In this document: piece after piece, positions 49,039-64,000 of the stretch
Layout of the letters: each line of letters opens with the position of its first letter
Position numbering within the stretch: the first letter of the stretch is position 1
Source: Planctomycetota bacterium
Lineage (GTDB): Bacteria; Planctomycetota; JAJSAM01; JAJVHW01
NCBI GenBank assembly: GCA_965248445.1
Contig: CBDFJG010000004.1
Location: 576,001 to 640,000 of the forward strand
Direction of reading: 5' to 3'
DNA length: 64,000 bases
Program-made: the position numbers and the translations under genes
Notes under the pieces: generated by a model
Told to the model about the DNA's origin: nothing
The model's input: only the letters and a program-made list of their open reading frames with translations
Databases searched by the model: none

Positions 49039-50103
49039 CTACTCCACGCTCAGGAGTTCGAGATCGAAAACGAGGTCCGTCTTCTCCGGGATCTGGCTCG
49101 ACATCCGCTCGGCGCCCCGCGCGAGCTGGTGCGGGATCGTCACGGTGACGCGGTCGCCGGCCTGCATCTGGATGACGGTCAGGTCGAGGCCGGGAATCAT
49201 CTGCCCCACGCCGACGATGTAGCGCATGGGCTTGAGAGCCTCTCGCGTGTCCACGACCTTCGTGCCGTCCGGGAGCGTGCCGACGTAGTGCAGCGTGACC
49301 CGCTGACCGCGCTCGGGCTTCGCGCCCTTACCGTGCTTCTGCCAGACGATCTTCGGTTCGATGACGGCCAGCACCTCGATGTCGAACACGAGATCTGCGT
49401 TCGGGGGGATCTTTGGCGGGGATCCGCGCTTGCCGAGCGCCAACGCAGCCGGGACCTTGATTTTCACGCGGTCGCCGACGCGCAGCTTCTTGAGGACCAT
49501 GTCCAGCCCGCTGATTCCGCTCCGTGCTCCGGCCTGCAGCATGACCGGCCCGGCATCCTCCGCGCGCGAGTCGCGCCACACCTCGCCGGTTCCGAGCGAC
49601 GCGGTCACGTGTGCCTCGACGAGGTCTCCGCGTTCGAGCGCCTCGCCGTGACCGTGAGCGAGGTACTCGACGTCCGGCTCCAGGATGTCGAGGAGTTCCA
49701 TGTCGAAGACGAGGTCCGCCTTCGGGGGGATGGCCGGGCCGCGCCCGTCTGCGCCGTACGCGAGCTTCCACGGGATCGTCACCTTCCAGCGGTCGCCCTT
49801 GCGCATCTGTGCGAGCGCCAGATCCCAGCCCTTGATGACCATCCCGGCGCCGACCTCGACGACGAACGGCTCGTCCCGGTCGCGGGAACTGTCGAACTTC
49901 TTCCCGTCGAGAAAGGTGCCCGTGTAGTGGACGAGCGCGACGCGGCCGTTGCCGCAGACCTCGCCCTCCCCGGTGGCCAGCACTTCCTTCTGGATCGTCG
50001 GCTCGGGGACGGCGTCCTGTGCGGAGGCCGGCCCGGAGAGCAGCGAAACGGCGACGAGCGACAGGGCGGCAGCGGCCAGCGCCGCGAGGACGGGGATGCG
50101 CAT
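49039..50103 (-). CDS. Secreted FKBP-type PPIase with three FKBP domains
   Basis: VHYTGTFLDGKKFDSS and three copies of IP..ADL/TDLVFD.E.L. GAGGAG lies upstream. Confidence 0.9.
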   Translation of the reverse strand: MRIPVLAALAAAALSLVAVSLLSGPASAQDAVPEPTIQKEVLATGEGEVCGNGRVALVHYTGTFLDGKKFDSSRDRDEPFVVEVGAGMVIKGWDLALAQMRKGDRWKVTIPWKLAYGADGRGPAIPPKADLVFDMELLDILEPDVEYLAHGHGEALERGDLVEAHVTASLGTGEVWRDSRAEDAGPVMLQAGARSGISGLDMVLKKLRVGDRVKIKVPAALALGKRGSPPKIPPNADLVFDIEVLAVIEPKIVWQKHGKGAKPERGQRVTLHYVGTLPDGTKVVDTREALKPMRYIVGVGQMIPGLDLTVIQMQAGDRVTVTIPHQLARGAERMSSQIPEKTDLVFDLELLSVE

Positions 50104-50178
50104 GTGAACTCCTCGAATGTGCCCGCGCTGCGGGACCACGAGCCTAGCGGTCCCTGCTCAGATCGTCCGGCGGGGCCT

Positions 50179-51528
50179 CTATCTGAGATCGACGCGGACG
50201 AGCTTGACCTTCGATCCTCTTTGGACGCGCAGGAGCATGGTCCCGTCCCGTCTGGCTGAATCCGCGGCGTCCTCGAGCGCGGTCACCGGGTCGTTTCCGG
50301 GCAGCCAGGCGCTCTCGCCCACGCCGAGGACCATGTCGCCCGGCCGCAGCCCGGCGCGCTCCGCGCCGCCGTCGTCGATGACGGTCTGCAGCACGACGAC
50401 ACCCGCATCCCCTGGGACCTGCACGCGCGTGGGCAGGGCGTCGCGCGGCACCATCGCGAGCATCGCCTCGAGCGCACCGATCGACGCGTTCGGGCCCATC
50501 TCCGTGAAGGTCGGGCGCTTGGCGAGATTGGCCAGCTCCCAGATCACCCTGTAAGCGTGCCGCGCCACCGCGGCGACCTTCTCCGCGTCGACCCGCGCCG
50601 CGGTGTCTCCGACCGTGTGGTAGTCGCGATGCAGTCCGCTCGTGTAGTAGAGCGCGGGGATCCCGTTGTCGTAGAAGCTCGCCTGGTCGCTGCGCTTGTA
50701 GACGGAGCCCGTCTTGGCGCGGAACCGGATGCCCGACGAGTGCGCCACGCGGCGGTGCACTGCGTCCAGCTCCGGCGAGGACCCGTTGCCGTACACGTGC
50801 ATCTCGTTGCGATCGTTGCGCCCGACCATGTCCATGTTCACGTTGCAGACGAGATTCGCCAACGGGACGGTCGGATTCGAGACCCAGTGCTTGCTGCCCA
50901 GGAGACCGCGCTCTTCACCGCTGAAGAACACGAACAGGATCGAGCGCTTGGGCCGCGGAGCTGCCTCCGCTGCGAACGCGCGGGCGATGAGCAGGAGCGC
51001 CGCGACGCCGCTCGCGTTGTCGTCTCCGCCGTTGAAGTGCCGTTCACCGTCCAGCGTGCCGACGTGGTCGTAGTGCGCCGAGACGACGAGGCACTCCAAC
51101 TGGAGGGCGGGGTCGCTGCCAGGCAACAGCGCGCACACGTTGAACGTCGCCCGCGTGCCGCCCGTCGGGTTCGCGCTCTCACGCTGCGCGGGGAACGGGA
51201 GCAGGCGCACGCCGAACGTCTGCCTGTAGGTCTCGCGGTCGCCCTCGCTCCCGCCGGCGCCGGTCAGCTTCCAGGCGGCGAGGTGCTTCTCGATGTACTC
51301 GCCCGCTACGTCGCAGCCCCACGTCCCGGATGCGCGGCCCGCACAGTTCGGCCCGGCGAGGTAGTCCACGAACTTCCGCGCGACCGCGCCGTCGAACGAG
51401 CGCATCACGTAGTCCGGCGGCGGGCTCGCCGCGGCCTTGTTCGCGGCCGGGAGCGGGGCCTCCTCCGTCGCCAGTGCCACCGCCGCCAGCGCGGCCAGAA
51501 GTGCGGCAGATGGCGCGATGCGCTTCAC
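50179..51528 (-). CDS. Secreted M28 peptidase with C-terminal PDZ
   Basis: SAHYDHVG, GGDDNASG, GEERGLLGS, NMDMVGR, RSDQ, DYHT and AGLRPGD. Confidence 0.9.
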   Translation of the reverse strand: MKRIAPSAALLAALAAVALATEEAPLPAANKAAASPPPDYVMRSFDGAVARKFVDYLAGPNCAGRASGTWGCDVAGEYIEKHLAAWKLTGAGGSEGDRETYRQTFGVRLLPFPAQRESANPTGGTRATFNVCALLPGSDPALQLECLVVSAHYDHVGTLDGERHFNGGDDNASGVAALLLIARAFAAEAAPRPKRSILFVFFSGEERGLLGSKHWVSNPTVPLANLVCNVNMDMVGRNDRNEMHVYGNGSSPELDAVHRRVAHSSGIRFRAKTGSVYKRSDQASFYDNGIPALYYTSGLHRDYHTVGDTAARVDAEKVAAVARHAYRVIWELANLAKRPTFTEMGPNASIGALEAMLAMVPRDALPTRVQVPGDAGVVVLQTVIDDGGAERAGLRPGDMVLGVGESAWLPGNDPVTALEDAADSARRDGTMLLRVQRGSKVKLVRVDLR

Positions 51529-52214
51529 AGGACCGGCAGCCGTTCGTTGAGCCACTCGCCGACGAGGCGAATCTCGGGAGGACAGACCTGGTGCTGCATC
51601 GGGTACGTCTCGTACTGGACGTCGTACCCGGACGCAACGAGTGCGTCCCGCGCCTCGCGGCCCATGTGCTCCTGCACCATGGGGTCGAGCGTCCCGTGGC
51701 ATTGCAGGATCGGGACATCGGCGTTCGCCGCTGACCGTTCCTCCGGCAGCGACTCGGGCAGCAGGAGATATGCGGACAGCACGAGCAGGCCCGCGAGGCG
51801 CTCGGCATGGCGGAGCCCGTGGAACAGCGCGATCGCCCCGCCCTGGCTGAACCCCGCGAGGACGATCCTCCCGGCCGGCACCCCGCGCTCGTGTTCTCTC
51901 TCGATCAGTGTCGCGACGTGTTGCGCGGACCGCCGGAGGCCCTCTTCGTCATCGTTGCGCCTGCCCATCTCGACGATGTCGTACCAAGCCGGCATGACCA
52001 TGCCCCCGTTGACGGTCACGGCGATGGGGGGGGCGTGCGGGAAGACGAAGCGGACGCGGTGGTCCGGGGGCAGCCCGAGCTCCGGCACGATCGGCTCGAA
52101 GTCGTGCCCGCTGGCCCCGAGGCCGTGCAACCAGATCACCGCCGCGTCGGCCGGCCGGTGCGGCGGCTCGATCTCGACACAGTCCAGGACCCGGGCGGCG
52201 TGGTCGTCGGCCAT
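51525..52214 (-). CDS. Carboxylesterase/phospholipase (acyl-protein thioesterase-like)
   Basis: WLHGLGA, MPAWYDI, GFSQGG, HGTLDPMV and YPMQH. Confidence 0.9.
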   Translation of the reverse strand: MADDHAARVLDCVEIEPPHRPADAAVIWLHGLGASGHDFEPIVPELGLPPDHRVRFVFPHAPPIAVTVNGGMVMPAWYDIVEMGRRNDDEEGLRRSAQHVATLIEREHERGVPAGRIVLAGFSQGGAIALFHGLRHAERLAGLLVLSAYLLLPESLPEERSAANADVPILQCHGTLDPMVQEHMGREARDALVASGYDVQYETYPMQHQVCPPEIRLVGEWLNERLPVL

Positions 52215-52499
52215 GCGCCGCAGTCTGACCCGCGCCTGGCCCCGAGCCCAGGCAACTCCGGCTGCCGTCGTCGCGCCGCCGCCGGCGGCCGCCTTCTCAC
52301 CCAGGGCGAGCGCAGAGATGTCCCACATCCCTGACAGGTCATCGTCGGGGCGTTCCGTGACCGGCCTCACACCGTTCCGGTGGTCCAACCCCGAACACCC
52401 GCCGGACGATGAGTTTCCCGTGAAGACGGTCTCAGGCCGAACCTAGGATGCGGCCCGCGGACGGGACCGCGCAGCGCGCACGCCGACGGCGACGGGGGC

Positions 52500-52803
52500 G
52501 CAGATGGTTGGCCAGAGCCGAGTCGTCGTTCGCGATCAGTCGCTCGAGCCGTCCGCGCAGCACAGCGGCTTCGCCTTGCAGCCGGTCACGGTCGCCGTGC
52601 TCACCGAAGAGCCGGTAGCTGCGCATGACCGACTGCGCGATCATGACGCCCTTGTTGCCGAAGCGGCGATGTCCTCGCGGGCCTTCGGCCAGCGCACGGA
52701 AGGCGCGCTCGATGTGCGCCCAGCAGAGCTGGCGGCGGGCAAGTGGGTGTGACTCGTAGGCACCCATCCGGTCGCTGATCACCGTGCCACCGAAGCGCCG
52801 CCC
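52500..52803 (-). pseudogene. Internal fragment of an IS66-family transposase
   Basis: FGGTVISDRMGAY...RQLCWAHIERAF. Truncated at both ends, left boundary approximate. Confidence 0.8.
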
Positions 52804-52872
52804 TCTGTGCCAACGTGGCTGAGACACCGACCCCACGGATGATTACTGTGCAGGGCGGTGGAGGAACCAGCG

Positions 52873-53376
52873 ATGACGAACAACCACAACACAGCGCCGG
52901 GGGAGATCCCGGAGCCGAGGGAGGGCGAGCATAGCGAGCGCGATCGAGGCGGAGGGGGCTCCCCCGGGGCGCGCGGCCCGGGGGACGTTGGGGTGCGCGA
53001 CCCCGAGGTCGTGCCGCGCGCCTCGCGGCGGCGCTTTGGCGCCGCGTACAAGCTACGGATCATCGAGGCGGCGGACGCGTGCACGAAGCCCGGCGAGATC
53101 GGCGCTCTCTTGCGCCGTGAGGGGCTGTACTCCTCGCACTTGTTGACGTGGCGGCGCGCGCGGGACCAGGGCCAGCTCGAGGCGCTCTCGCCCAAGCGGC
53201 GTGGTCCCAAGCCCGATCCGGACCGTGCGCTCAAGAAGCGCAACGAGCAGCTCGAGCGCGAAGTCGCCCGTCTCGAGAAGCGGCTCGAGACGGCCGAGGT
53301 GATCATCGACGTGCAGCGAAAAGTCTCACGGCTGCTGGGCATCGAGATGCCCGAGACGAGCGGGAGCGACACGTGA
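52873..53376 (+). CDS. IS3-family OrfA
   Basis: RRRFGAAYKLRI, GALLRREGLYSSHL..WR, and a coiled-coil tail. Confidence 0.88.
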   Translation: MTNNHNTAPGEIPEPREGEHSERDRGGGGSPGARGPGDVGVRDPEVVPRASRRRFGAAYKLRIIEAADACTKPGEIGALLRREGLYSSHLLTWRRARDQGQLEALSPKRRGPKPDPDRALKKRNEQLEREVARLEKRLETAEVIIDVQRKVSRLLGIEMPETSGSDT

Positions 53377-54401
53377 TTGCGGCGGAGGAGCTGGGGGGAC
53401 GCGTGGGCGTCGCCCCCGCGTGCCGCGCGCTCGGAGTCACGCGCGCCACGCTCTATCGGCGCCGAACGGCACGCACGTGCCCCCGGCCCCAGCAGCCGCG
53501 CCGGCGCTCGCCGCGCGCCCTCACGATCGACGAGCGTCTTACCGTACTCGCGGTGCTGAGCGAGGAGCGCTTCTGCGATCTGTCACCGCTTGCGGCGTGG
53601 GCGATCCTGCTCGACGAGGGACGCTACCTGTGCTCGGTGCGCACGATGTACCGCATCCTCGGTGCGGCTGGTGCTGTGCGTGAGCGCCGCAACCAGCTGC
53701 GTCATCCCGCGTACAAGAAGCCCGAGCTCCTCGCGACCTCCCCGAACCAGGTCTGGAGCTGGGACATCACCAAGCTCCGCGGCCCGGTGAAGTGGAGCTA
53801 CTTCTATCTCTACGTCGTGCTCGACATCTACTCCCGCAACGTCGTGGGCTGGATGCTGGCGGACTGCGAGAGCGGTGCGCTGGCGACGGCACTCATCGAG
53901 CAGTCCTGCGAGAAGCAGGGGATCGCGGCGGAGCAGCTCACGATCCACTCCGATCGGGGGCCGCCGATGATCAGCAAGCCGGTGGCCTTTCTGCTCGCCG
54001 ATCTCGGCGTGACGAAGTCGCACAGCCGGCCGTACACGTCGAATGACAATCCGTTTTCCGAGAGCCAATTCCGCACGCTGAAGTACCGGCCGGACTTCCC
54101 AGCGCGCTTCGGCTGCATCGAGGACGCGCGGGCGCACTGCCGCGCCTTTTTCCACTGGTACAACCGCGAGCATCGTCACTCGAGTCTCGGGCTGCTGACG
54201 CCCGAGACCGTGCACTACGGCCGCGCCGAAGCGGCCGTCGCCGCGCGCTCGGTCGTGCTCGATGCCGCGTACGCGGCGCATCCCGAGCGCTTCGTGCGCC
54301 GTGCGCCGACGCCGCCGGCTCTGCCGACCGAGACGTGGATCAACCCGCCGGCCCGGGAACTCGCGGCGCTGGAGACTGCGACACAGGAGGCTGCTCACTA
54401 A
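53373..54401 (+). CDS. IS3-family OrfB DDE transposase
   Basis: PNQVWSWDITKL, LDIYSR, IHSDRG, SNDNPFSES and YN..H.HS. In the -1 frame relative to orfA, with a GTGA overlap. Confidence 0.92.
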   Translation: MIAAEELGGRVGVAPACRALGVTRATLYRRRTARTCPRPQQPRRRSPRALTIDERLTVLAVLSEERFCDLSPLAAWAILLDEGRYLCSVRTMYRILGAAGAVRERRNQLRHPAYKKPELLATSPNQVWSWDITKLRGPVKWSYFYLYVVLDIYSRNVVGWMLADCESGALATALIEQSCEKQGIAAEQLTIHSDRGPPMISKPVAFLLADLGVTKSHSRPYTSNDNPFSESQFRTLKYRPDFPARFGCIEDARAHCRAFFHWYNREHRHSSLGLLTPETVHYGRAEAAVAARSVVLDAAYAAHPERFVRRAPTPPALPTETWINPPARELAALETATQEAAH

Positions 54402-54622
54402 ACTCGAAGACGCGGTGTCTCAAAGTCGTTGACACGTCCCGTCCGCTAACCCACTCCTCACGCGGAAGGTCGCCTGCGTGAAGCGGATCTTCGCGGAGGT
54501 CGGTGTACTGGTCCGCGATCGGGCAAGTTGGGACAGACCTGACGAAGAGTGAGGCCGGTCCCCGCGCAGCGTTACCGATCGGGCCAACAGCGCGAGAGTC
54601 CCCTGAGCCTGGGTGACTACTG

Positions 54623-54649
54623 GTACCCCCCTGTTAGGAGCGGGGGTAC
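54623..54649 (-). other. Putative Rep_trans/MOBT nick-site (dso/oriT) hairpin
   Basis: Minus strand GTACCCCC-GCTCCTAACAG-GGGGGTAC, an 8-bp stem with CTAAC in the loop. It reads TPAPNRGV in frame. Confidence 0.7.
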
Positions 54650-54690
54650 GCGACCCGCGCGGCCACCGCCTCGGCCAATACACTGGCTCG

Positions 54691-56070
54691 GTGCGCCGCC
54701 GCAACGCCGTCCTCCTCGTGATCGCGACCGCCGTGGTCGGCACATCGGCCTGGCTCGCGCTGCGACCGAGTCCCGAGGACCTCATGGCCGACTTCGTCGC
54801 CGAACTGCGTGCGCGCGGGGAGCCCGTCACCATCGCGGACATGGAACTGCCGTTACCTCCTGACGCGGAGAACGGAGCCGATGATCTCGCCGCTGCGTTC
54901 CGTTGGGTCGAAACTCGCCTGGCCCAGGAGGACCGCGAACTCGAGAGCACCGACCGCGTCTACTGGTGGTGGCACTACGCCGGGCCGTGGGATCACGACG
55001 CCGACGATCCTTGGCACGAGCACGCGACGCCCGAGAAGCTCGACGAGCTACGCGAGTTCCTCGCCACGATGGGGCCGCTCTACGAGGGTCTGGCTGCCGC
55101 AGCGGGCAATCCGGAGATCGTCTGGCCTCTCCCGGTGGAAGCGGCCAGCCCTTCCCTATTCGGTCCGAAGGCCACCGACACGCTCGACACCTGGCGTGAC
55201 GTGCGCCGGTTGCTGGAGGCCCGCGCCGTCGTGGCCACCGACCCCGGCGAACGACTGGACGCGGTTGTCTGGCTGGTCGCACTCGTTCGGAGCGTGCGCC
55301 TTCGAACGCACGCTGACTTCCTCTTCGCAACCGTCTTTCGACGCCAGAGTTGCGTTGCTCTTCGCGACGGAGTGGAGGCTGGGCGGCTCGATCCGGCCGA
55401 GCTCCGCGCCCGAGTCGACGACCTCCTTCGCGAAGGCCTCGTCGCGACGATGCCGCGCGCTCTACGCGCTGAGCGAGTGCTCTGGATCGAGCAGTTCCCC
55501 GCGCTGCTGGATGGCTCGCTCCAAGCGCAGTTGCGCGAGTTAACGCGGTCGCTCGACAGGGGTTTCAACGAGCGACCGCCGCCGCGCGCCTGGGAACCGA
55601 TCACCGACGCTGCCTACGAGACGCTCGCCGGCGTGCGGTTCGACGGGCCCGAGTACGTCGCAGCGCTGCGCACAATCGATGCTCTGATCCCGCACGAGGG
55701 TGCCTGGAGCCGCGCGGATGAGGCCGCGTTCGCTGCGTTCGAGTCGCAGCCGGGCTACTTCCAGGGACACGGGACTCCCGAACGCGCCGACCGAATGCGG
55801 TCTGTGGACGCTGCCGAGGCCCTCGCTCGGATTGCGCTGGCCGCATGCGAGCACCGGGCCAACCACGGTGATTGGCCGCGGTCCACTGCGGACCTGTCGC
55901 CGCTGTTCGCCGACGGCGTCCCGGTCAATCCGTACACGGACGCCCCGTTCGTCATGAAGCGTGACGGTGCCGCGCTTGTGCTGCGAGCAACGCGTGGTCA
56001 AGCCCCCGCGCTGCCTGCCGACGAGAGTCTGCGAGACGCTGGCCTCGAATGGCGTCTGACGCCCCGCTGA
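54691..56070 (+). CDS. Hypothetical membrane-anchored protein with pseudopilin-like C-terminus
   Basis: N-terminal TM, LRARGEP, and C-terminal IALAACEHR..HG.WP....L.P....VPVNPYT..PF. Confidence 0.7.
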   Translation: MRRRNAVLLVIATAVVGTSAWLALRPSPEDLMADFVAELRARGEPVTIADMELPLPPDAENGADDLAAAFRWVETRLAQEDRELESTDRVYWWWHYAGPWDHDADDPWHEHATPEKLDELREFLATMGPLYEGLAAAAGNPEIVWPLPVEAASPSLFGPKATDTLDTWRDVRRLLEARAVVATDPGERLDAVVWLVALVRSVRLRTHADFLFATVFRRQSCVALRDGVEAGRLDPAELRARVDDLLREGLVATMPRALRAERVLWIEQFPALLDGSLQAQLRELTRSLDRGFNERPPPRAWEPITDAAYETLAGVRFDGPEYVAALRTIDALIPHEGAWSRADEAAFAAFESQPGYFQGHGTPERADRMRSVDAAEALARIALAACEHRANHGDWPRSTADLSPLFADGVPVNPYTDAPFVMKRDGAALVLRATRGQAPALPADESLRDAGLEWRLTPR

Positions 56071-56086
56071 GCCGCTCTCACTTGCG

Positions 56087-56401
56087 CTAGTTCAGCGTCG
56101 CTTCCCACAGCCCCTCTCGCGCCTCCTCCGTGTTCTCTCGGTAGAGCGCGTACCTCGCCGAGCGAGTCTCTCGCCCGGACTCGATCAGCTTGCGTACGAA
56201 CTCCCTCCCGCCCACTTCGTCCGCGACGGAGAGCGCAGCAGCCACCTGCGAGAAGAGCCACCGTCCAGTCTCGTACGCTCGCTGACGGACCGACCGCTCG
56301 TCGATCTCCGCCGCCAAGATCGACTCGTCGCACTCGCCCAGGAACGCCGCCCACGCCGGATGCGGATCCGCGCGGCTCTGGTTCTTGTGGGCGCGGTCCA
56401 C
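56087..56401 (-). pseudogene. C-terminal fragment of a Rep_trans/MOBT-like replication initiator or relaxase
   Basis: VD....QSR....PAWAAFLG followed by RWLFSQVAAALS....GREFVRKLIESG, resembling NicK/Rep_trans tails. No catalytic core upstream. Confidence 0.6.
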
Positions 56402-56404
56402 CGG

Positions 56405-56891
56405 GCTCGCCGTGATCGTCCCCCTCGACCCGCTCAGATCGGGTTGCTACGCGCTCCAGGAATGCGTACGCCTCGTCGTCGTCAGGGAACTCGCCATGCG
56501 CCGCGAGCGCAACGGCGCCAACGAGACGCGGGCGCGGTTCCTCCATCGCGAACAACTCCACCGCCAGAGCCCTCGCGCGTTCGGTGTCGATGGCCGACAG
56601 TGCCGCGGCAAGCCACGCCGAATTGCGGTTGTCCAACTCCGCGAATCCCGACGACCACTTGCGGAGTGGCGCCAACGCCGCGTCTCCGAACTCCACGACC
56701 GCAGGAACCGCACGCATGCCGAATTCCCGATCTCTGATCAGTATCTGAGCTGCTGCGTCTGGCGATCGCCACTGACCCTCGAACGGCAGCAGAGACCTCG
56801 CTGAGCGCTGCAGCGGCGGTACCGCGACGACGAGCAAGGCGAGCGCTGCGACGGCGATGACAACGCGACTCAACACCGTGCGCGGCTGCAT
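56405..56891 (-). pseudogene. 5' part of a membrane-anchored HEAT-like protein, fused out of frame to the Rep fragment
   Basis: TM leader and helical repeats (PRLVGAVALAAHG). Composition becomes non-coding-like after about EGDDH. Confidence 0.5.
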
Positions 56892-57041
56892 ACCCGAGAC
56901 CCTCGTCCGTGTACATCAGCGGGCGCCTCGTCGATGCGCACCCGTTCTCAATCGCCCTTCGCCTCGCGCCGGTCCAGATGCATGTTCAGCACGATGGCGC
57001 CGACAACGAGCGGGGGCAGCAGCCACATCGCGAACCAACCA

Positions 57042-57122
57042 CCAGCTCGCGGCCAGCGGCACCCACAGCGCGAAGATCGCGCGCTGTGTGAGAGGGCCGG
57101 GGGATGCCGTCTTCGGAGTCAC
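57042..57122 (-). pseudogene. 5' stub of a MATE/ANKH-like membrane protein gene
   Basis: LTQRAIFALWVPLAASW resembles the N-terminus of that family, then the resemblance stops. Confidence 0.4.
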
Positions 57123-57285
57123 GAGGAGCGTGTGTCTACCCGCCCCCGTGCCACGGGGCGCCAAGTGCGGAGCCGCCGCCGCGGCGAAGTGCTCCGGCGA
57201 GTCCCTACTCCGAGTGGATCGCTATCGAGATGCCCGATCGTTCCTGCTGCGCGGACAGCCCGCACGAGGTCAGCGACTCTGACGC

Positions 57286-58203
57286 TCAGCGAGGTTCGAG
57301 CAACCGTCGTGCGTTGCCGCCGAGGATCAGCGCCGCGTCATCGTCCGAGAGGCCGCAGTTCTGCATCGCTTCGCGCTGGACCGTCAGCAGGTCGGCGCGC
57401 CAGCCCCGCGGGAACGTGCACGAGTCGGTGCCGAAGAGGATGCGCCGGCGGCCGAACACGCCGAGAGCCGTGCGGAACACGTCGTCCAGTGTGATGTCGG
57501 CCGGCTGCGTCGCGATCCACGAGTTCGAGGACGACGAGTCGGTGTAGACGTTCTCACACATCGAGCCGGCCATCAGCGTCTCGCGGAAAAACCCCGCACC
57601 GAAGTGCGGGATCACGAAGTGCGCAGCAGGGTGCGCATTGGCCGCGGGGATGATGTCGAGCGGGTTGGCGTACGCGAGATCCTGCGGACGCGGGAGGCCG
57701 AGCAGGTCCTTCAGTTTGACGACCAGGACGCCGCAGTGCACGACGGCCGTGGCGTGGCTGTCGGCCAGCGCCTCGAGCACCGGGCGCACCGCCGCGTCGC
57801 CCATCCGGTAGTGATGCACCGCCGGGAACAGGAGGATGCCGCGGAACGGGCCGTCCTCGAGCAGTGCGCGCACCCGCTCACCGGCACCCGGTGCGACGGG
57901 ATTGACCAGCGCGAACGGCGTGATGCGGCCGCCCGAGACCTGCGCCGCTTCGGCGAGCACCGGGATCTCCTGCGGCACGCTCGCGAAGCTGACCATGTGC
58001 TCGACGCCGTTGGCGTCCATCTCCGCGTGCCAGCGCGCAACGTGCTCGGCGGTGTCGGAGCCGGGAACTTCGAGGCCGGTCTTCTCGACAACGCGCGCGA
58101 GCTTCTCCTCGGTCGTGCCGGGCTGCGGTGACTGCGCCGCGAGCGTCTCGAAGAACGTCCGCGAGAAGAAGTGCGAGTGGAAGTCGATAATGCGCGTCGT
58201 CAT
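57286..58203 (-). CDS. Amidohydrolase family (Amidohydro_2)
   Basis: IDFHSHF, VHCG, IPHFGAG and ILFGTDS. GGAGGT lies upstream. Confidence 0.88.
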   Translation of the reverse strand: MTTRIIDFHSHFFSRTFFETLAAQSPQPGTTEEKLARVVEKTGLEVPGSDTAEHVARWHAEMDANGVEHMVSFASVPQEIPVLAEAAQVSGGRITPFALVNPVAPGAGERVRALLEDGPFRGILLFPAVHHYRMGDAAVRPVLEALADSHATAVVHCGVLVVKLKDLLGLPRPQDLAYANPLDIIPAANAHPAAHFVIPHFGAGFFRETLMAGSMCENVYTDSSSSNSWIATQPADITLDDVFRTALGVFGRRRILFGTDSCTFPRGWRADLLTVQREAMQNCGLSDDDAALILGGNARRLLEPR

Positions 58204-58285
58204 GGTCCACCTCCGTTGCTCGCACGATAGCGGACGCTCTGCGCCACGCCGCGAGTGACGCGCGGCAATGCGCTAGGCTACGTAG

Positions 58286-59246
58286 ATGCGACTTTCCGAC
58301 GCGGTCGTCGTGATCGCGGCGCTGACCTGTTGCGCTGCCTGCGGGGATGACCCGGCAACACCGGCCAGCCCGCCTGCGGCGAGGGCCGCCGCCCCCATGG
58401 GCGAGCTGGGCGTTGATCTGAGCGCACCGGCGGCGCCGGTCGCACCACCAGATCCAGCCGAGGATCCGGAGTCACTCGTGCGCTCCGCGATGGACCATCT
58501 GTACGACGTCGGCGTCGTCAAGATCCAGATGCACGTGAACGTCCGTCCCGACGGACTGACAACGCATCGTGTGTCACCGCCATTGCCCGACGAGGACGTG
58601 CTCTGGGCACGCATCGAGGAGGCCGGCGTCGAACTGGCCGCGCAGTGCGGAGCACCCGGACGCGGCGGCGCAGCTTCTGACCGAGGAATTCGCCGACGAG
58701 AAGGCGCGCCGCTGCGCGAACACCCTCCTCGCTCTCAAGTACTGCGATGCATCGTTGTGCACACGCCTCGCCGCGGTCGCAGCCGCGGGCCAACTCCGAA
58801 GCGCGGATGACTGGGGTGCACTCCTGTCCGCCGTCACTTCTGCCGGCGGCAGCCTCGACTTCTACGCAGAGAGGCGCGCGCTCCGAGAGGGTAGCGACAC
58901 GGCGCGCGGGCTCGTCGTCACGATGGCGGGAGACGAGATCGCTGCTGGTCAGACAGATCGGCTGCTGATCCTGTGGGAGGCTTGGGATCTCGCTGTCGCC
59001 GGCGATTTCGACGAACTCAAGGTGTCGGCCGCGCTGAGGACGGCGATCAACACCACAGGGCGCTCCGTCTCCGCGAGGGAAGTCGTCGCTCTCGCGGACC
59101 ACGTCTCCCGCCCGGACTGGTCGCCCCGACTGCGGGTGCTCGCCGGCATGCTGGAGGAACACGCGAGCGCCGACGGGCGCGTCTCCGACGCCGCGATCGG
59201 CGAGTTCATGGTGCGCTTGACCGACGCGTGGCGAGCCGCGGACTGA
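58286..59246 (+). pseudogene. Hypothetical lipoprotein split by a frameshift near 58650
   Basis: The lipobox frame (CAAC) reads well to ELAAQC and continues in another frame as EHPDAAAQLL...AWRAAD. Confidence 0.6.
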
Positions 59247-59267
59247 GGGCGGAGTTCGCGCCGAGCG

Positions 59268-59558
59268 TCAGCAGGAGCCGCAGGTCTCGCAACGCCAGCC
59301 GGCGTCATCGCGGCGGCGGTGGCGCTTCATGTCGATGAGCGCGACCACATAGACGCCGGCCCAGACGCAGAGCATCGCGACATGGGTCTCGCCCGGCGAG
59401 AGGTCGTAGGCGCGGCGCAGCGGGTAACCGGCCGCGAGCGCGAGGGCGCCGGCCGACGTCCACCAGACGACCGCGCGCCGCTGCCAGTCCTTGCCGGGGG
59501 GCGACTCCGTCTCGCACGTCGTGCACACGCGGGGACGCGGCTCGGCGGTCGTGGACAT
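59268..59558 (-). CDS. Small membrane protein with CxxC-hydrophobic hairpin-CxxC architecture
   Basis: CTTC, two hydrophobic segments, then CETC. Confidence 0.55.
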   Translation of the reverse strand: MSTTAEPRPRVCTTCETESPPGKDWQRRAVVWWTSAGALALAAGYPLRRAYDLSPGETHVAMLCVWAGVYVVALIDMKRHRRRDDAGWRCETCGSC

Positions 59559-59728
59559 GGATGGTCCAACCGAAACAGAGCAGCGTGCGTTCGCAGTGCC
59601 TGGGACGGCGCTGCGTGCAAGAAACGTCACCGTCGCGCGTCGAGCTGTGCACCAACACACGACGTCGCGTCCGGCGCACACAGCGCCGAGCGGCGGAGGA
59701 GGCAGGATGACGGGACGAAGCGTCTCGT

Positions 59729-60133
59729 GTGAGGACGCCGCGCGCGTTCACGCTGATCGAGTTGCTGGTGGTGATCGCCATCATCGGGATGCTGGTCAGC
59801 ATCGTCGCGGTCAACTCGATGGGCGCAGCCGATCAGGCGCGGGTCGACTCGACCAAGTGGCAGATGGGGCAGATCGAGAGCGCGGTCAGCATGTTCAAGC
59901 TGAAGAAGCGGCGGCTGCCCGAGACGCTCGACGACCTCGTCGGCGGCGTCGACGACGAGCGCTTCCTCGGCTACAGCCGCGTGCCCCGCGACGCGTGGGG
60001 AGGAGAGTTCCTCTACGAGGCGACTTCTCGCGGCGGCTTCCAGCTGACCTCATTCGGCGAGGACGGCAGGCAGGGAGGCGACAGCTTCGCGGCAGACATC
60101 ACGCGGGACGACCTGATTGACGTCGGAGACTAG
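59729..60133 (+). CDS. gspG: Major pseudopilin GspG-like protein
   Basis: A|FTLIELLVVIAIIG prepilin motif, PRDAWG and SFGEDG..GG....DI. Confidence 0.8.
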   Translation: MRTPRAFTLIELLVVIAIIGMLVSIVAVNSMGAADQARVDSTKWQMGQIESAVSMFKLKKRRLPETLDDLVGGVDDERFLGYSRVPRDAWGGEFLYEATSRGGFQLTSFGEDGRQGGDSFAADITRDDLIDVGD

Positions 60134-60209
60134 CCGCATGGGTTTCGCTCGGCCGCGGGGCGGCTAGAATGGCGCCGGCGGGCGAGATCCCCCGCCGGGA
60201 GGTGTCGTC

Positions 60210-60881
60210 ATCGCCAAGGTCAATTCCCTCGCACTCTTCGGACTCGCGGCAGCGGCGGCGGTCGGCATGTTCTTCCTCGGAGCAGCGGTCGGCGGGACGT
60301 TCGGCGGGGAACCGGTCTCGCCGTCCGACGCGAGCGTCGACGACGGCAGCACCGGCGCGGCGAACGCCAAGATCCTCGCCAAGCTCGACGCGCTCTCCCG
60401 CGAGGTGCGGCAGTTGCGCGACGGGCAGGCCGACGACGCACGCAACGCGCAGAACGACCGGAAGCGCGATCGCGTCGATCCTGCGACGGCGCAACTCCGC
60501 GTCGCTTCACCGACCGAGCTGAGCGCCGGTGAGCGCGAGATCCTCGAGCGGTTGAAGTCCCTCGAGATGGTGGGAGGGCGGGTCGCTTTCACGGCACCCG
60601 TCGTCTACCAGGCGGTCACCAAGCTCGAACGGCCGCCGAATCTGACCGCGCGGCAGTACCTCGCTACGCTGAAGTCGAAGAACAACACGACGGTCCAGCA
60701 GGCGCACGCCGGCTGGTCCCCCGCGCAGGTGCAGAACGAGTACGGCATGCCCGACGCCATCCTGGATCGCGACAGCTACATCGAGTGGGTCTACTTCATC
60801 GGAGATGAGCCGTCGGACGGCAGCAAGCGCAAGCAGTTCGACTTCCACTTCACGAACGACCGCTGCAACGTCGCGCACTAG
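60210..60881 (+). CDS. Hypothetical membrane-anchored protein (coiled coil, BamE/SmpA-like tail), probable ATC start (first ATG is 60267)
   Basis: GGGAGGT at 60197-60203, 6-nt spacer, in-frame ATC. C-terminal GWSPAQV...YGMPD....EWVY. Confidence 0.6.
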   Translation: MAKVNSLALFGLAAAAAVGMFFLGAAVGGTFGGEPVSPSDASVDDGSTGAANAKILAKLDALSREVRQLRDGQADDARNAQNDRKRDRVDPATAQLRVASPTELSAGEREILERLKSLEMVGGRVAFTAPVVYQAVTKLERPPNLTARQYLATLKSKNNTTVQQAHAGWSPAQVQNEYGMPDAILDRDSYIEWVYFIGDEPSDGSKRKQFDFHFTNDRCNVAH

Positions 60882-60949
60882 GGGCGGACGCGCGCCGCTG
60901 ATCGCGGGCAGGGCAGCGCCGTACCCACGGCGCTCTACGATCCCCTGTC

Positions 60950-61978
60950 GTGCCCCCCCTCCGCGTCCTCCTCCTGACTCACAAGGAACTCTACGCGCGA
61001 CCCTCGCTCGACGGCTTCACCGAGCAGGAGACGCTGCCGTGGCGCACCGCGTACCAGGTGTTTCACGGCTTGTGGGCGATGGGACACGACGTGGGGCAAC
61101 TGGGGCTCGACGACAGCCTGGGACCGCTGCACAGGGAGCTCGACCGCGCGCTGCCGGACATCGTGTTCAACCTGCTCCTCGAACTGCGCGACTCGGGCGG
61201 GTACGAGCCGCACGTCGTCTCAGCGCTCGAAGCGCGCGGCGTACCGTTCACCGGTTGTAACTCCGAGGGGCTCGTGCTCACGCGCGACAAGGCGCTGTCG
61301 AAGACTCTCCTGCGCGCGCATGACGTGCCGGTGCCGGACTTCGCGGCGATCGCTCTGGGTCGCCGGGCGCGCAAGGTCCCGATCGAGTTCCCCGTGATCG
61401 TCAAGCCGAACGACGGAAGCGGATCCGTCGCGATCTCCGAGGACGCGATCGTGCACGACCAGGCCGCGTTATCCCGCCGCATCGCACTGCTGCACGACAC
61501 CTACGGACTGGGCGTGATCGTCGAGCGCTTCATCGCGGGGCGAGAACTCACAGTCGGCGTCCTCGGCAACGGCCGTCCGGAGGTGCTCCCGGTCATGGAG
61601 ACCGTGTTCGGTGATCTGCCGGAGGCCGCGCCCCGGATTCTGACAAGGCGCCTGAAGTGGGACCTGCACCACCGCCGCGAGCTGGGCGTGCAGTGCGCGC
61701 CCGCGCAGAAGCTCCGGGCGGCGGACCGGGAACGAGTGACCGCAATCGCAGAGCGCGCGTTCGGGGTCCTCCGCCTGTCCGGGTTCGCCCGCTTCGACGT
61801 CCGCTTGGCACCGGACGGCGGCGCCTTCGTCGTGGACGTCAACCCCAACCCCGACCTCGACTCGGAAGACGAGCTCGCGCTCTCCGCGACATCTGCAGGT
61901 ATGTCGCAGCACGACCTGCTGGCACGAGTGATCGACCTCGGGCTCGCCTACCGCCCCTGGTGGGCAGGCTCTCCTTGA
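60950..61978 (+). CDS. Ddl-like ATP-grasp ligase (not a canonical Ddl)
   Basis: PFTG, RDKALSK, FPVIVKP..GSGS, ERFIAGRELTVGVLGN, ARFD and DVNPNP. Confidence 0.8.
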   Translation: MPPLRVLLLTHKELYARPSLDGFTEQETLPWRTAYQVFHGLWAMGHDVGQLGLDDSLGPLHRELDRALPDIVFNLLLELRDSGGYEPHVVSALEARGVPFTGCNSEGLVLTRDKALSKTLLRAHDVPVPDFAAIALGRRARKVPIEFPVIVKPNDGSGSVAISEDAIVHDQAALSRRIALLHDTYGLGVIVERFIAGRELTVGVLGNGRPEVLPVMETVFGDLPEAAPRILTRRLKWDLHHRRELGVQCAPAQKLRAADRERVTAIAERAFGVLRLSGFARFDVRLAPDGGAFVVDVNPNPDLDSEDELALSATSAGMSQHDLLARVIDLGLAYRPWWAGSP

Positions 61979-62067
61979 TCCACGCAGGGTGAGCCGATTC
62001 GGGCTCGCCCGTCGTTCTGCGCGTGTCAGAATGCGGTCGGTCCCAGTTCGAGCGGGGAGGCGCGACC

Positions 62068-62511
62068 ATGGATTGTCCACGCTGCGAGAAACAGCTGGCG
62101 GTGACGTTCTGCACCGGCGGACGCATGCTGATGTGTGCGTACTGCGGGGGAACGGCGGTCACAGTCGAGATGCTCCGCCGGTTCGCACCACAGGACCGCA
62201 TCGACGACATCTGGCGCCAGGCGAAGACCACGCGGGAGAAGAGCACCCGCGACTGCCCGAGCTGCGAAGCCAAGATGCGCCGCGTGATGTCGGAGGCCGG
62301 TGAACAGGTCGTGATCCTCGAGACCTGCGCGCTCTGTCACATCGTGTGGTTCGACGAGTCCGAGCTGAAGGCGTTCTCGCCGGACGCGACCGAGCCCTCC
62401 GAGGAGGAGAAGGTCGAGGCCGCCGATCGCCTGGGCGTGAAGGACCGCGACAACGCCGGCGACGGTGTGTGGCGATTCGCGGGACGCTTGAAGGGCCTGT
62501 TCGGCGAGTAG
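62068..62511 (+). CDS. Double zf-TFIIB-like zinc-ribbon protein, paralog 1
   Basis: CPRC/CAYC and CPSC/CALC..VWFD..EL. GGGAGG lies upstream. Confidence 0.8.
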   Translation: MDCPRCEKQLAVTFCTGGRMLMCAYCGGTAVTVEMLRRFAPQDRIDDIWRQAKTTREKSTRDCPSCEAKMRRVMSEAGEQVVILETCALCHIVWFDESELKAFSPDATEPSEEEKVEAADRLGVKDRDNAGDGVWRFAGRLKGLFGE

Positions 62512-62536
62512 TCGTCCGCGCGCTGTGACCGGAGTC

Positions 62537-63028
62537 ATGAACTGCCCAAGCTGTGAGAAGCCGTTGGCAGTTACCTTCTGCGCGGGCGGTCGCATGCTGA
62601 TGTGTGCGTACTGCAACGGCACTGCGGTGACGATCGAGATGCTGCGCCGCTTTGCGCCCGGTGTCCGTGTGAACGACATCTGGCTGCAGGCGAAGTCGAC
62701 GCGCGAGAGAAGTGAACGCGACTGCCCGAGTTGTGAGTCCGCGATGCGGCGCGTGACCGTGAAGGCCGGCGAGCACACGGTCGTCCTCGAGACCTGCGCA
62801 CAGTGCCATGTCGTGTGGTTCGACGGAGACGAACTCCGCACGCTGTCCCCCGACGCGACGGAACCGTCCGAGGAGGAGCGACGCGCGGCGGCGAAGCGCC
62901 TCGGCATCAAGGACCACGACAGCGTGGGGTCTGGAGTCTGGCGTTTCGTAGGGCAGCTCGGACGCATGCTGTCGGAGCGTGAGGGCGTCTACGGTGAAGG
63001 CGTGCCGTGGTCCGGAGAGGTGTTCTAG
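62537..63028 (+). CDS. Double zf-TFIIB-like zinc-ribbon protein, paralog 2
   Basis: Collinear with paralog 1 over its whole length. Confidence 0.8.
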   Translation: MNCPSCEKPLAVTFCAGGRMLMCAYCNGTAVTIEMLRRFAPGVRVNDIWLQAKSTRERSERDCPSCESAMRRVTVKAGEHTVVLETCAQCHVVWFDGDELRTLSPDATEPSEEERRAAAKRLGIKDHDSVGSGVWRFVGQLGRMLSEREGVYGEGVPWSGEVF

Positions 63029-63091
63029 GGGCTGGGTCCACGGCCGCCTCGCGATGGCGCCCGCGAGGCCAGGGCGCCTAGACTGACCGGC

Positions 63092-64000
63092 GTGAAGGCA
63101 CTGCCGTTCGCGATCTCGTTCGCCGCGCTCGTCCTCGGAGCCGCGGCGGTGTGGCTCTCGCTGGCGGGCCGCGACGCCGGCCCGGACCTGACCGGTCTCG
63201 AGGCGCGCATCGCGGAGCTCGAGCGGCAACTTGGTGCGCGGGCGCCGAGGAGCCGGCCGCGCTCGGGGGCGTCGCGAGCGGCGCCCGACATCCCGGCGCG
63301 GGCGGCACCCGCGATCCCGCCGCGGGCGGCACCGGACACTCCGGATCGGGCAGCACCGAGTATGCGTACGCAGCCGGGTCCGTCCGTGAGCGGTGAGAGC
63401 GCACACGCGTTCCTCGAGGGCTGGGTGCGCTCGTTCCATGAGAACGGCGAGGGGACCGAGTTCTTCCGGCTCGGAGTCGAGGCGTTCGCGCCGGAACTGG
63501 TGAGCGACCTCGGCGCGTATCTCGCCGACGCGCGGCAGCCGGCAGGGCTCCGCCTCGCGATCGCGAAGATGCTCGGCGCCGCCCGTTTCAAGGACGACTC
63601 CCGCGCCGTGGACGCGCTGATGAACGCGCTACGAGGTGCGCCGAGCCGTGATCTGGCCGAGCAGGCGTTGCGAGGCGTCGTGCAGTCCGGCGACGTACGG
63701 CGCGCGACAGAACTCGAGGGGCTCTCCGACCGCGTGGAGGACGCCGTGTCACGCGGTCACGTGTACCGCGCGATCGCCGCGCTGGCCGGCGAACAGACGA
63801 ACGCCACTTTGCTGCGTCTGATCTCGCGCGAACGCGACACCGTGGCGCAACGTGCCATCGTCGAGAGCGTGAACGCGCAGGACGAGGACTCAGCACTCGA
63901 GATCCTGCGGCGCGCCTCGCGCGGCGACGCTTACTACCTGCGAAATCGCGCGGCGGAGAAGCTGGGGCTGTTCCGCAGCGACGCGGCGCGCCAGTTCCTC
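63092..64000 (+). CDS. Membrane-anchored HEAT-repeat-like protein, 3'-truncated by the window edge (absent from the ORF track)
   Basis: Open frame VKALPFAISFAALVLGAAAVWL..., coiled coil, RAAP 8-aa repeats (63275-63358), and LRNRAAEKLG. Confidence 0.75.
   Translation, partial: MKALPFAISFAALVLGAAAVWLSLAGRDAGPDLTGLEARIAELERQLGARAPRSRPRSGASRAAPDIPARAAPAIPPRAAPDTPDRAAPSMRTQPGPSVSGESAHAFLEGWVRSFHENGEGTEFFRLGVEAFAPELVSDLGAYLADARQPAGLRLAIAKMLGAARFKDDSRAVDALMNALRGAPSRDLAEQALRGVVQSGDVRRATELEGLSDRVEDAVSRGHVYRAIAALAGEQTNATLLRLISRERDTVAQRAIVESVNAQDEDSALEILRRASRGDAYYLRNRAAEKLGLFRSDAARQFL

Follow-up and report, generated by a model that had tools for sequence, protein, structure and literature searches.

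A locus in the genome of a Planctomycetota bacterium is, very probably, what remains of a small integrative rolling-circle element, no longer functional, from a family found in the Planctomycetota. We analyzed a window of 64,000 nt (GCA_965248445.1, contig CBDFJG010000004.1, positions 576,001–640,000 of the forward strand), and coordinates are those of this window unless a locus or contig is named. On its own, the locus is debris, and its interest rests on the element family behind it. With this family, Rep_trans integrative elements, so far reported mostly from Firmicutes, are found in the Planctomycetota as well, and the same CT'AA nick sequence appears across phyla in opposite placement relative to the replication gene (rep).

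Rep_trans tail of the window and its family

On the minus strand of the window lies the 3' third of a Rep_trans (PF02486) gene (56087–56419), which has an open reading frame from a GTG at 56401, lacks its 5' two-thirds and retains no catalytic motifs. A cargo gene of 459 amino acids with an N-terminal membrane anchor-like stretch (54691–56070, plus strand) sits in the slot between rep and the nick site (nic). It is convergent to the rep-tail frame (56401–56087) and ends 16 nt from the rep stop, as a sequence-only reading of this DNA had described. The nic region (54605–54649, minus strand) consists of a GC-rich hairpin (54649–54623) with CT'AA in its loop and a conserved 3' flank. These parts are bordered by a HEAT-repeat-like gene (56420–56891, minus strand), whose frame is free of stops across the rep tail down to 55998 (ORF 56891–55998), and by an IS3-type insertion sequence (52801–54441, plus strand; Pfam rve, rve_3, and HTH_Tnp_1), which a truncated IS66-like piece with a weak DDE_Tnp_IS66 match abuts (52493–52803).

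The Rep_trans identity proposed for 56401–56087 is confirmed through relatives of the fragment. By itself the fragment matched no Rep_trans model in Pfam, NCBIfam, or PHROGs. The fragment is 56% identical over 107 amino acids to residues 229–335 of P0009, an intact 337-aa rep of the relative G006 (E 2e-39 to intact Rep_trans), DNA homology to the intact gene begins at 56419, and all six full-length relatives tested pass the PF02486 cut-off. This link was made via the relatives' genomes and phmmer, which returned six matches, including a spurious one to a 1773-aa repeat protein; no longer relative of the fragment scored in a word-based search. A six-frame search of 61 genomes placed matches in six, counting the own genome and one spurious case, and the true matches fall in open frames of 342–424 aa. 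The match in G010 (E 0.0096) was dropped, as it is not a rep locus. Across the own genome the PF02486 profile gave no match, and neither a whole rep nor any rep 5' sequence behind the nick was found.

The catalytic motifs of P0009 (residues 16, 101–104, 161–166, and 181–183) all precede residue 190, so the window fragment cannot nick. The catalytic set, namely the D of motif N', RxD, YxKxxE, and RxE as defined in the relevant excerpt of PMC5714925, is present in the intact family and absent from the fragment. Loss of the catalytic tyrosine had been suspected from the variable tyrosine of a T-x-Y-x-G motif and was rejected, as catalysis depends on the Y of YxKxxE instead. All 28 proteins of the close family contain YDKxx[EQ], matching Y252, K254, and E257 of RelSt3 in the section of PMC6499999 that covers them. 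The family profile matches the RepSTK1 structure 4cij at E 5.7e-7, and in the intact reps of 336–349 aa Pfam shows PF02486 only, with no N-terminal HTH.

The 28 close proteins were found among 44 matches in a set of 5.8 billion proteins. In a quick tree, built from a quick search only, they are separate from Bacillota proteins, and the closest plasmid and phage proteins are 23–29% identical to them. Close reps are carried by 5 of 17 genomes of the class and by 9 of 401 genomes in a sample of the phylum, carriers that are few and related and so not independent. A metagenome pattern scan gave 21 loci, with L139 as the sole close family member.

Intact elements in relatives and their possible routes of transfer

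In related Planctomycetota, intact elements of 5.1–8.1 kb occupy the 3' ends of tRNA genes or of rho, and run in the order att, optional cargo, rep, zero to two cargo genes, nic, cargo, RHH/Xis-type genes, tyrosine integrase, att. Each contains a tyrosine integrase, small HTH_17 or RHH-like genes, a single Rep_trans gene, and unrelated cargo, which bears out the earlier proposal of mobile DNA whose cargo can be exchanged, in a host outside the Firmicutes. The delimited copies are L010 (5.07 kb, 22-bp repeat, tRNA-Gln), L012 (6.0 kb, 47-bp repeat matching the 3' half of tRNA-Arg), L011 (5.7 kb, 13-bp core, rho 3' end), L013 (5.2 kb, 11-bp core, rho 3' end), and L163 of another family (8.1 kb, 24-bp repeat); att direct repeats were found for these and for L176. 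An integrase lies within ~5 kb of five of the six intact close reps, and the contig of the sixth ends too soon. It is mostly opposed to rep, a compact relaxase-xis-int run occurring in L016 only. Upstream of rho in G005, L011:2069–3283 has a strong match to Pus10_C (PF21238, E 1e-58); Pus10 is an archaeal and eukaryotic pseudouridine synthase.

Other loci show variation and decay. L176:5984–11839 (G005:C106) keeps the same att, integrase, Xis, and RHH-like frame, with GmrSD-type cargo and the CT'AA site still present, and has an HUH rep of the ORF2/G2P type (PF23343) in the rep slot, an apparent rep replacement. Distal to rho, L011 and L164 carry repeated units of an att repeat, a small opposed gene, and a rep 5' scrap. 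L139 joins both inner arms over one core, which fits a tandem junction as well as an attP. In L015:7520–14660 (G004:C319), a remnant with only the rep tail lies with a ParE-like gene, Xis, and an integrase beside tRNA-Sec, with an 18-bp repeat of the tRNA-Sec 3' end. The family provides a compact module of integrase and replicon for a phylum that has few genetic tools, and a way for variable small genes and cargo of defence type (AAA ATPase, GmrSD, toxin–antitoxin pairs) to gather at rho and tRNA genes.

How would such an element live? Integrase and Xis would excise it as a circle, and Rep_trans would nick CT'AA and copy the circle by rolling-circle replication for maintenance; replication from this site is probable by analogy with known Rep_trans elements. 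Rep_trans would probably act in addition as the relaxase for transfer via a helper; we infer excision and this possible relaxase role from the same elements. With nic behind rep, rep would be copied last. New elements would enter the same att site and old ones decay, giving arrays of cargo genes with scraps of rep and nic.

What moves these elements without a visible helper of the TcpA type? A conjugative helper is slightly favored, at less than even odds; a phage helper is nearly as probable, and other routes are less probable. No coupling-protein or secretion-system gene is present among the ORFs of the delimited elements. In five carrier genomes we found no clear conjugative helper, these genomes being incomplete and a helper not needing to be resident: none has a P-loop_TraG match, each has one FtsK of housekeeping size over the cut-off, and two have TrwB-like matches.

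The intact elements may instead be phage satellites, packaged by a helper virus and using Rep for replication and not as a relaxase. This possibility, to which we give less than even weight, is compatible with the integrative-element explanation, as it concerns the transfer route only. The missing coupling-protein and secretion genes and the housekeeping-sized FtsK proteins would suit it, as would prophage-like integrases of the own genome that are 35–48% identical to the element integrases, one of them at tRNA-Gln, and the HUH rep of L176. It is weakened by the TrwB-like matches in two of the five incomplete carrier genomes, where a helper may be non-resident, and by a pattern search of IMG/VR that returned no family rep. 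The Zot/pI assembly ATPase (PF05707) likewise occurs in none of the five carriers, which also speaks against an inovirus prophage.

Decay of the window copy

Whatever route the intact elements take, the integrative copy in the window has lost the 5' part of rep, the integrase, and the att sites. The earlier view that the element has no integrase does not hold, since both a tyrosine integrase and att repeats are present in the intact copies. The upstream gene would have been fused to what is left of rep by one deletion, and the integrase side would have been lost in a rearrangement associated with IS3, leaving the tail, the cargo, and the nick site. The HEAT-like frame enters the rep tail in a frame other than that of rep, and the boundary is probably a deletion junction at which the end of the HEAT-like gene and the 5' part of rep were lost. 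The HEAT-like gene itself scores 0.90 to HEAT clusters in Atlas, a lead only, and no homolog was found for 56420–56891.

The IS3-type element has 19 near-identical full copies in the genome. Its copy in the window shows no matching target duplication and lies 184 nt past the hairpin, where intact elements have the regulator, Xis, and integrase. The stretch of the IS66-like piece is matched by 48 loci, 45 of which continue differently. There is no tRNA in the window and no att site around the window copy, the only repeat across its flanks being one of 14 bp, of which one copy lies within the IS. Apart from one gene 30 kb away, the window shows no synteny with the rho array of G005. Elsewhere in the own genome, L204 (C1:213500–214110) holds an integrase 5' stub, 45% identical to the L011 integrase, which directly follows a DUF1549 gene and is cut by an IS3 copy. 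This stub (C1:214021–213500) could be the lost end of the window element, but its flanks mismatch and its core was not found near the window.

Homologs of the window cargo occur in 6 of 17 class genomes, with up to 10 matches per genome, and the gene scores 0.95–0.96 to unnamed PVC clusters in Atlas; by homology, the cargo appears as a multi-copy family of the host lineage. None of the 19 homolog loci in relatives has element DNA in its 1.5-kb flanks, and the window cargo is therefore a passenger. The own genome also holds a cargo array between rho-type att repeats (L001:6187–10300; G000:C3:252186–256300), with a nick site, a cargo homolog, and no rep. The array carries the hairpin that follows rep in L011; the rho gene of this genome lies on a different contig, beside prophage-like genes. 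A distant cargo homolog, 24% identical to the window cargo, is present in two copies with 96% identity (C3:29560–30908 and C3:254091–255439), only one of which adjoins a nick site.

The search for circles proposed in the sequence-only reading came out negative. Contigs from three runs of one sample, which is probably the source sample and not independent, reproduce 54412–57600 without a listed difference, at a flat depth equal to the flank (single-copy) and with no circle joint; run X1, a small share, gives scraps only.

Might the host keep the tail for its own benefit? A catalytically dead C-terminal Rep and a decoy origin could be retained to blunt incoming elements, and gpX of filamentous phage is a C-terminal Rep-like precedent. 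In favor of this, the tail forms an open frame that has a GTG of its own, and a tail lacking the rest of rep is also seen in G004 (L015) and in P0004, the latter beginning at almost the same residue. However, the L015 tail begins elsewhere (residue ~172), the fusion to the upstream gene is out of frame as an accidental deletion would give, and the genome is heavily rearranged by IS elements, so that we consider retention improbable.

Several repeats were noted in passing. A REP-like repeat of ~35 bp starting CATACCGAGACC has 18 pattern matches, at G000:C4:497026–498173 and 16 other sites, with a degenerate copy at 56889 of the window. An inverted pair of it flanks a 337-aa gene with a weak Y1_Tnp match (E 1e-4, just under the cut-off), an arrangement like that of RAYT/REPtrons. 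A role as cassette sites was considered for the CATACCGAGACC repeats and rejected, given their REP-like behavior and the degeneracy of the window copy. A second abundant family of intergenic repeats contains GTAG and has dozens of copies in the own genome (e.g., C1:211580–211620). Within the window, 62067–62479 and 62536–62948 are tandem small CxxC-rich genes with 73% identical DNA.

The predicted nick site and its place behind rep

The minus-strand hairpin has the stem GTACCCC/GGGGTAC at 54649–54623. Its predicted nick, CT|AA at 54636/54635, is as first read, whereas the A of ACCCCC lies at 54647 and not at 54648. The local fold is −9.1 kcal/mol and the 141-nt region overall folds no better than shuffles (z −0.16), so that the case for a putative nic site is made by the local stem-loop and its conservation, not by the fold of the wider region. 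The site is 93% identical over 45 nt to the nic of the intact element L010, and the outer stem pairs vary between elements with pairing retained. Its motif matches the published CT'AA nic, and the likeness to Tn916, ICEBs1, and ICESt3 nick sites noted earlier holds. The expected association of hairpin and rep is also found: the relaxed pattern CYAACAGGGRGGTA is present in 4 of 17 class genomes, all four of them rep carriers, and its reversed control has no match. Eight of nine such sites are tied to element DNA; the remaining one, L177, is surrounded by housekeeping genes, has no element DNA around it, and is probably due to chance. Rfam gave no match over 50000–64000 of the window. In the available text of PMC9371924, a CT'AA nick in a G/C-rich hairpin loop is conserved in ICEBs1, Tn916, and ICESt3 and is identical to the Rep_trans dso.

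Among 13 Planctomycetota rep loci examined, the nick is downstream of rep in eight, upstream in one, and was not recognised near rep in four (L015, L160, L161, and L162). From the rep stop to the nick the distance is 1451 nt in the window and 843, 448, 82, 2021, 178, −2, and 213 nt in the others, the values of 178 and −2 belonging to variant nick sites of L014 and L016 that were assigned by eye. The divergent Phycisphaerales record L051 has its nick at the 5' end of rep. Outside this family the usual placement is the reverse. GTDB genomes contain 98 stretches with the exact pattern, and of the 80 fetched with flanks, 61 have a rep ORF after or spanning the nick (60 Bacillota, 1 uncultured), 4 have rep before it (Planctomycetota, not independent of the elements described here), and 15 have no match at 1e-5. 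In IMG/VR, rep follows the nick at 14 of 15 loci, with one locus lacking a match.

The sequence-only reading had explained the window order as a circular permutation of a small circle opened within rep, or as a decayed tandem. In the first version, recombination of an integrase-free minicircle of rep and cargo with the chromosome, at a point inside rep, would have produced rep-3', cargo, and nic/rep-5'. The window order fits this, and so does the usual position of the motif at or in the rep 5' end, NRG being in frame in four of five Bacillota-type ORFs that span the nick. Yet L010 shows the window order exactly, with rep, a convergent cargo (a different gene), and nic, and intact relatives share this order with a whole rep upstream; rep-cargo-nic is thus native and the window order needs no permutation. 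Moreover, NRG[VG] occurs in none of the 28 close family proteins, which makes the peptide TPAPNRGV merely an antisense reading of the site and not the start of rep. Together with the missing rep 5' sequence behind the nick and the integrases and att repeats of intact copies, this leaves the minicircle very improbable. As to the tandem version, decayed tandem units do exist in relatives. A chance pairing of a G/C run with an unrelated ORF, which the lack of a family model for the fragment alone might suggest, has a negligible probability given the E-value to intact Rep_trans, an expectation of ~1e-4 per own genome (4th-order Markov) for the 14-mer CTAACAGGGGGGTA, seen twice, and the same pairing in relatives.

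How do the integrative elements compare with known systems? IS91/ISCR rolling-circle transposons have an HUH transposase and no integrase, and are ruled out here by a PF02486 protein and by elements with integrase and att repeats. By integrase, att sites, and initiator, the intact relatives would classify as Rep_trans IMEs with putative mobilisation. The closest known elements are streptococcal IMEs, for which the consulted parts of PMC5357655, PMC5704250, and PMC7563843 describe a single PF02486 relaxase, an excisionase, and a tyrosine integrase, some without a coupling protein, as well as tandem accretion with decayed elements. Like these Rel_PF02486/MobT IMEs (Coluzzi 2017), as far as they are portrayed there, the Planctomycetota elements combine Rep_trans, excisionase, and integrase with tRNA or housekeeping 3'-end targets and accretion. 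In contrast to them, they occur in another phylum, have the nick behind rep with a cargo slot, target rho and tRNA-Gln/Arg, carry an integrase mostly opposed to rep, come with no TcpA or helper ICE that we could find, and have reps forming their own group in the quick tree. Host phylum, nick-behind-rep layout, and the absence of a detected helper are thus new. In searches of the open-licence literature we found no account of such elements in Planctomycetota; supplementary element tables could list some.

The likeness to other systems is partial. With the MOBT elements ICEBs1, Tn916, and ICESt3, as treated in the excerpts of PMC6499999 and PMC9371924, the family shares CT'AA in a GC-rich hairpin loop and the catalytic residues, but its 337-aa reps have no N-terminal HTH, a conjugation module is missing, and the nick is downstream and not upstream of the gene. 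Rep_trans plasmids (pT181/pC221; RepSTK1, PDB 4cij, 4cwc, 4cwe) have the same fold family, motifs, and, according to the portion of PMC9371924 on this point, an identical nick sequence, whereas the Planctomycetota elements are integrated and integrase-bearing and the closest plasmid rep is 27% identical. A precedent for a nick behind rep is SNJ2 (Rep-Arvir/Rep-SNJ2, archaeal betapleolipoviruses), an integrase-bearing element whose essential hairpin origin lies downstream of a Rep_trans-related gene. It differs in being an archaeal virus with a distinct protein family and a hairpin within ~200 nt, and the passages of PMC13107129 on it describe no cargo slot. Decay after accretion is also known from CIMEs, and the rho arrays of the relatives fit this; unlike CIMEs, which keep attL and attR in the pertinent section of PMC5704250, the window copy has no detectable att and is thus further decayed.

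The layout itself may have consequences. More speculatively, and in our view unlikely rather than likely, the nick behind rep would make these elements machines for gene capture and array building that spread without a known conjugative helper. By strand transfer at nic, Rep would join foreign or cryptic ends to the 3' half of the site, and successive insertions at one att site would stack small genes into arrays resembling integrons at the 3' ends of rho and tRNA genes. Arrays of att, cargo, and rep-5' units in L011, L164, and L001 and the HUH rep in the same slot of L176 are further hints of this. In the remnant L164:3640, 27 of 30 bases match the intact site to the right of the nick and 3 of 14 to the left, and the site is fused to a rep 5' scrap; the remnant L139:388 is 97% identical over 35 nt, starting 2 nt before CTAA. 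These two cases, a hint, suggest that Rep itself may have made the junctions.
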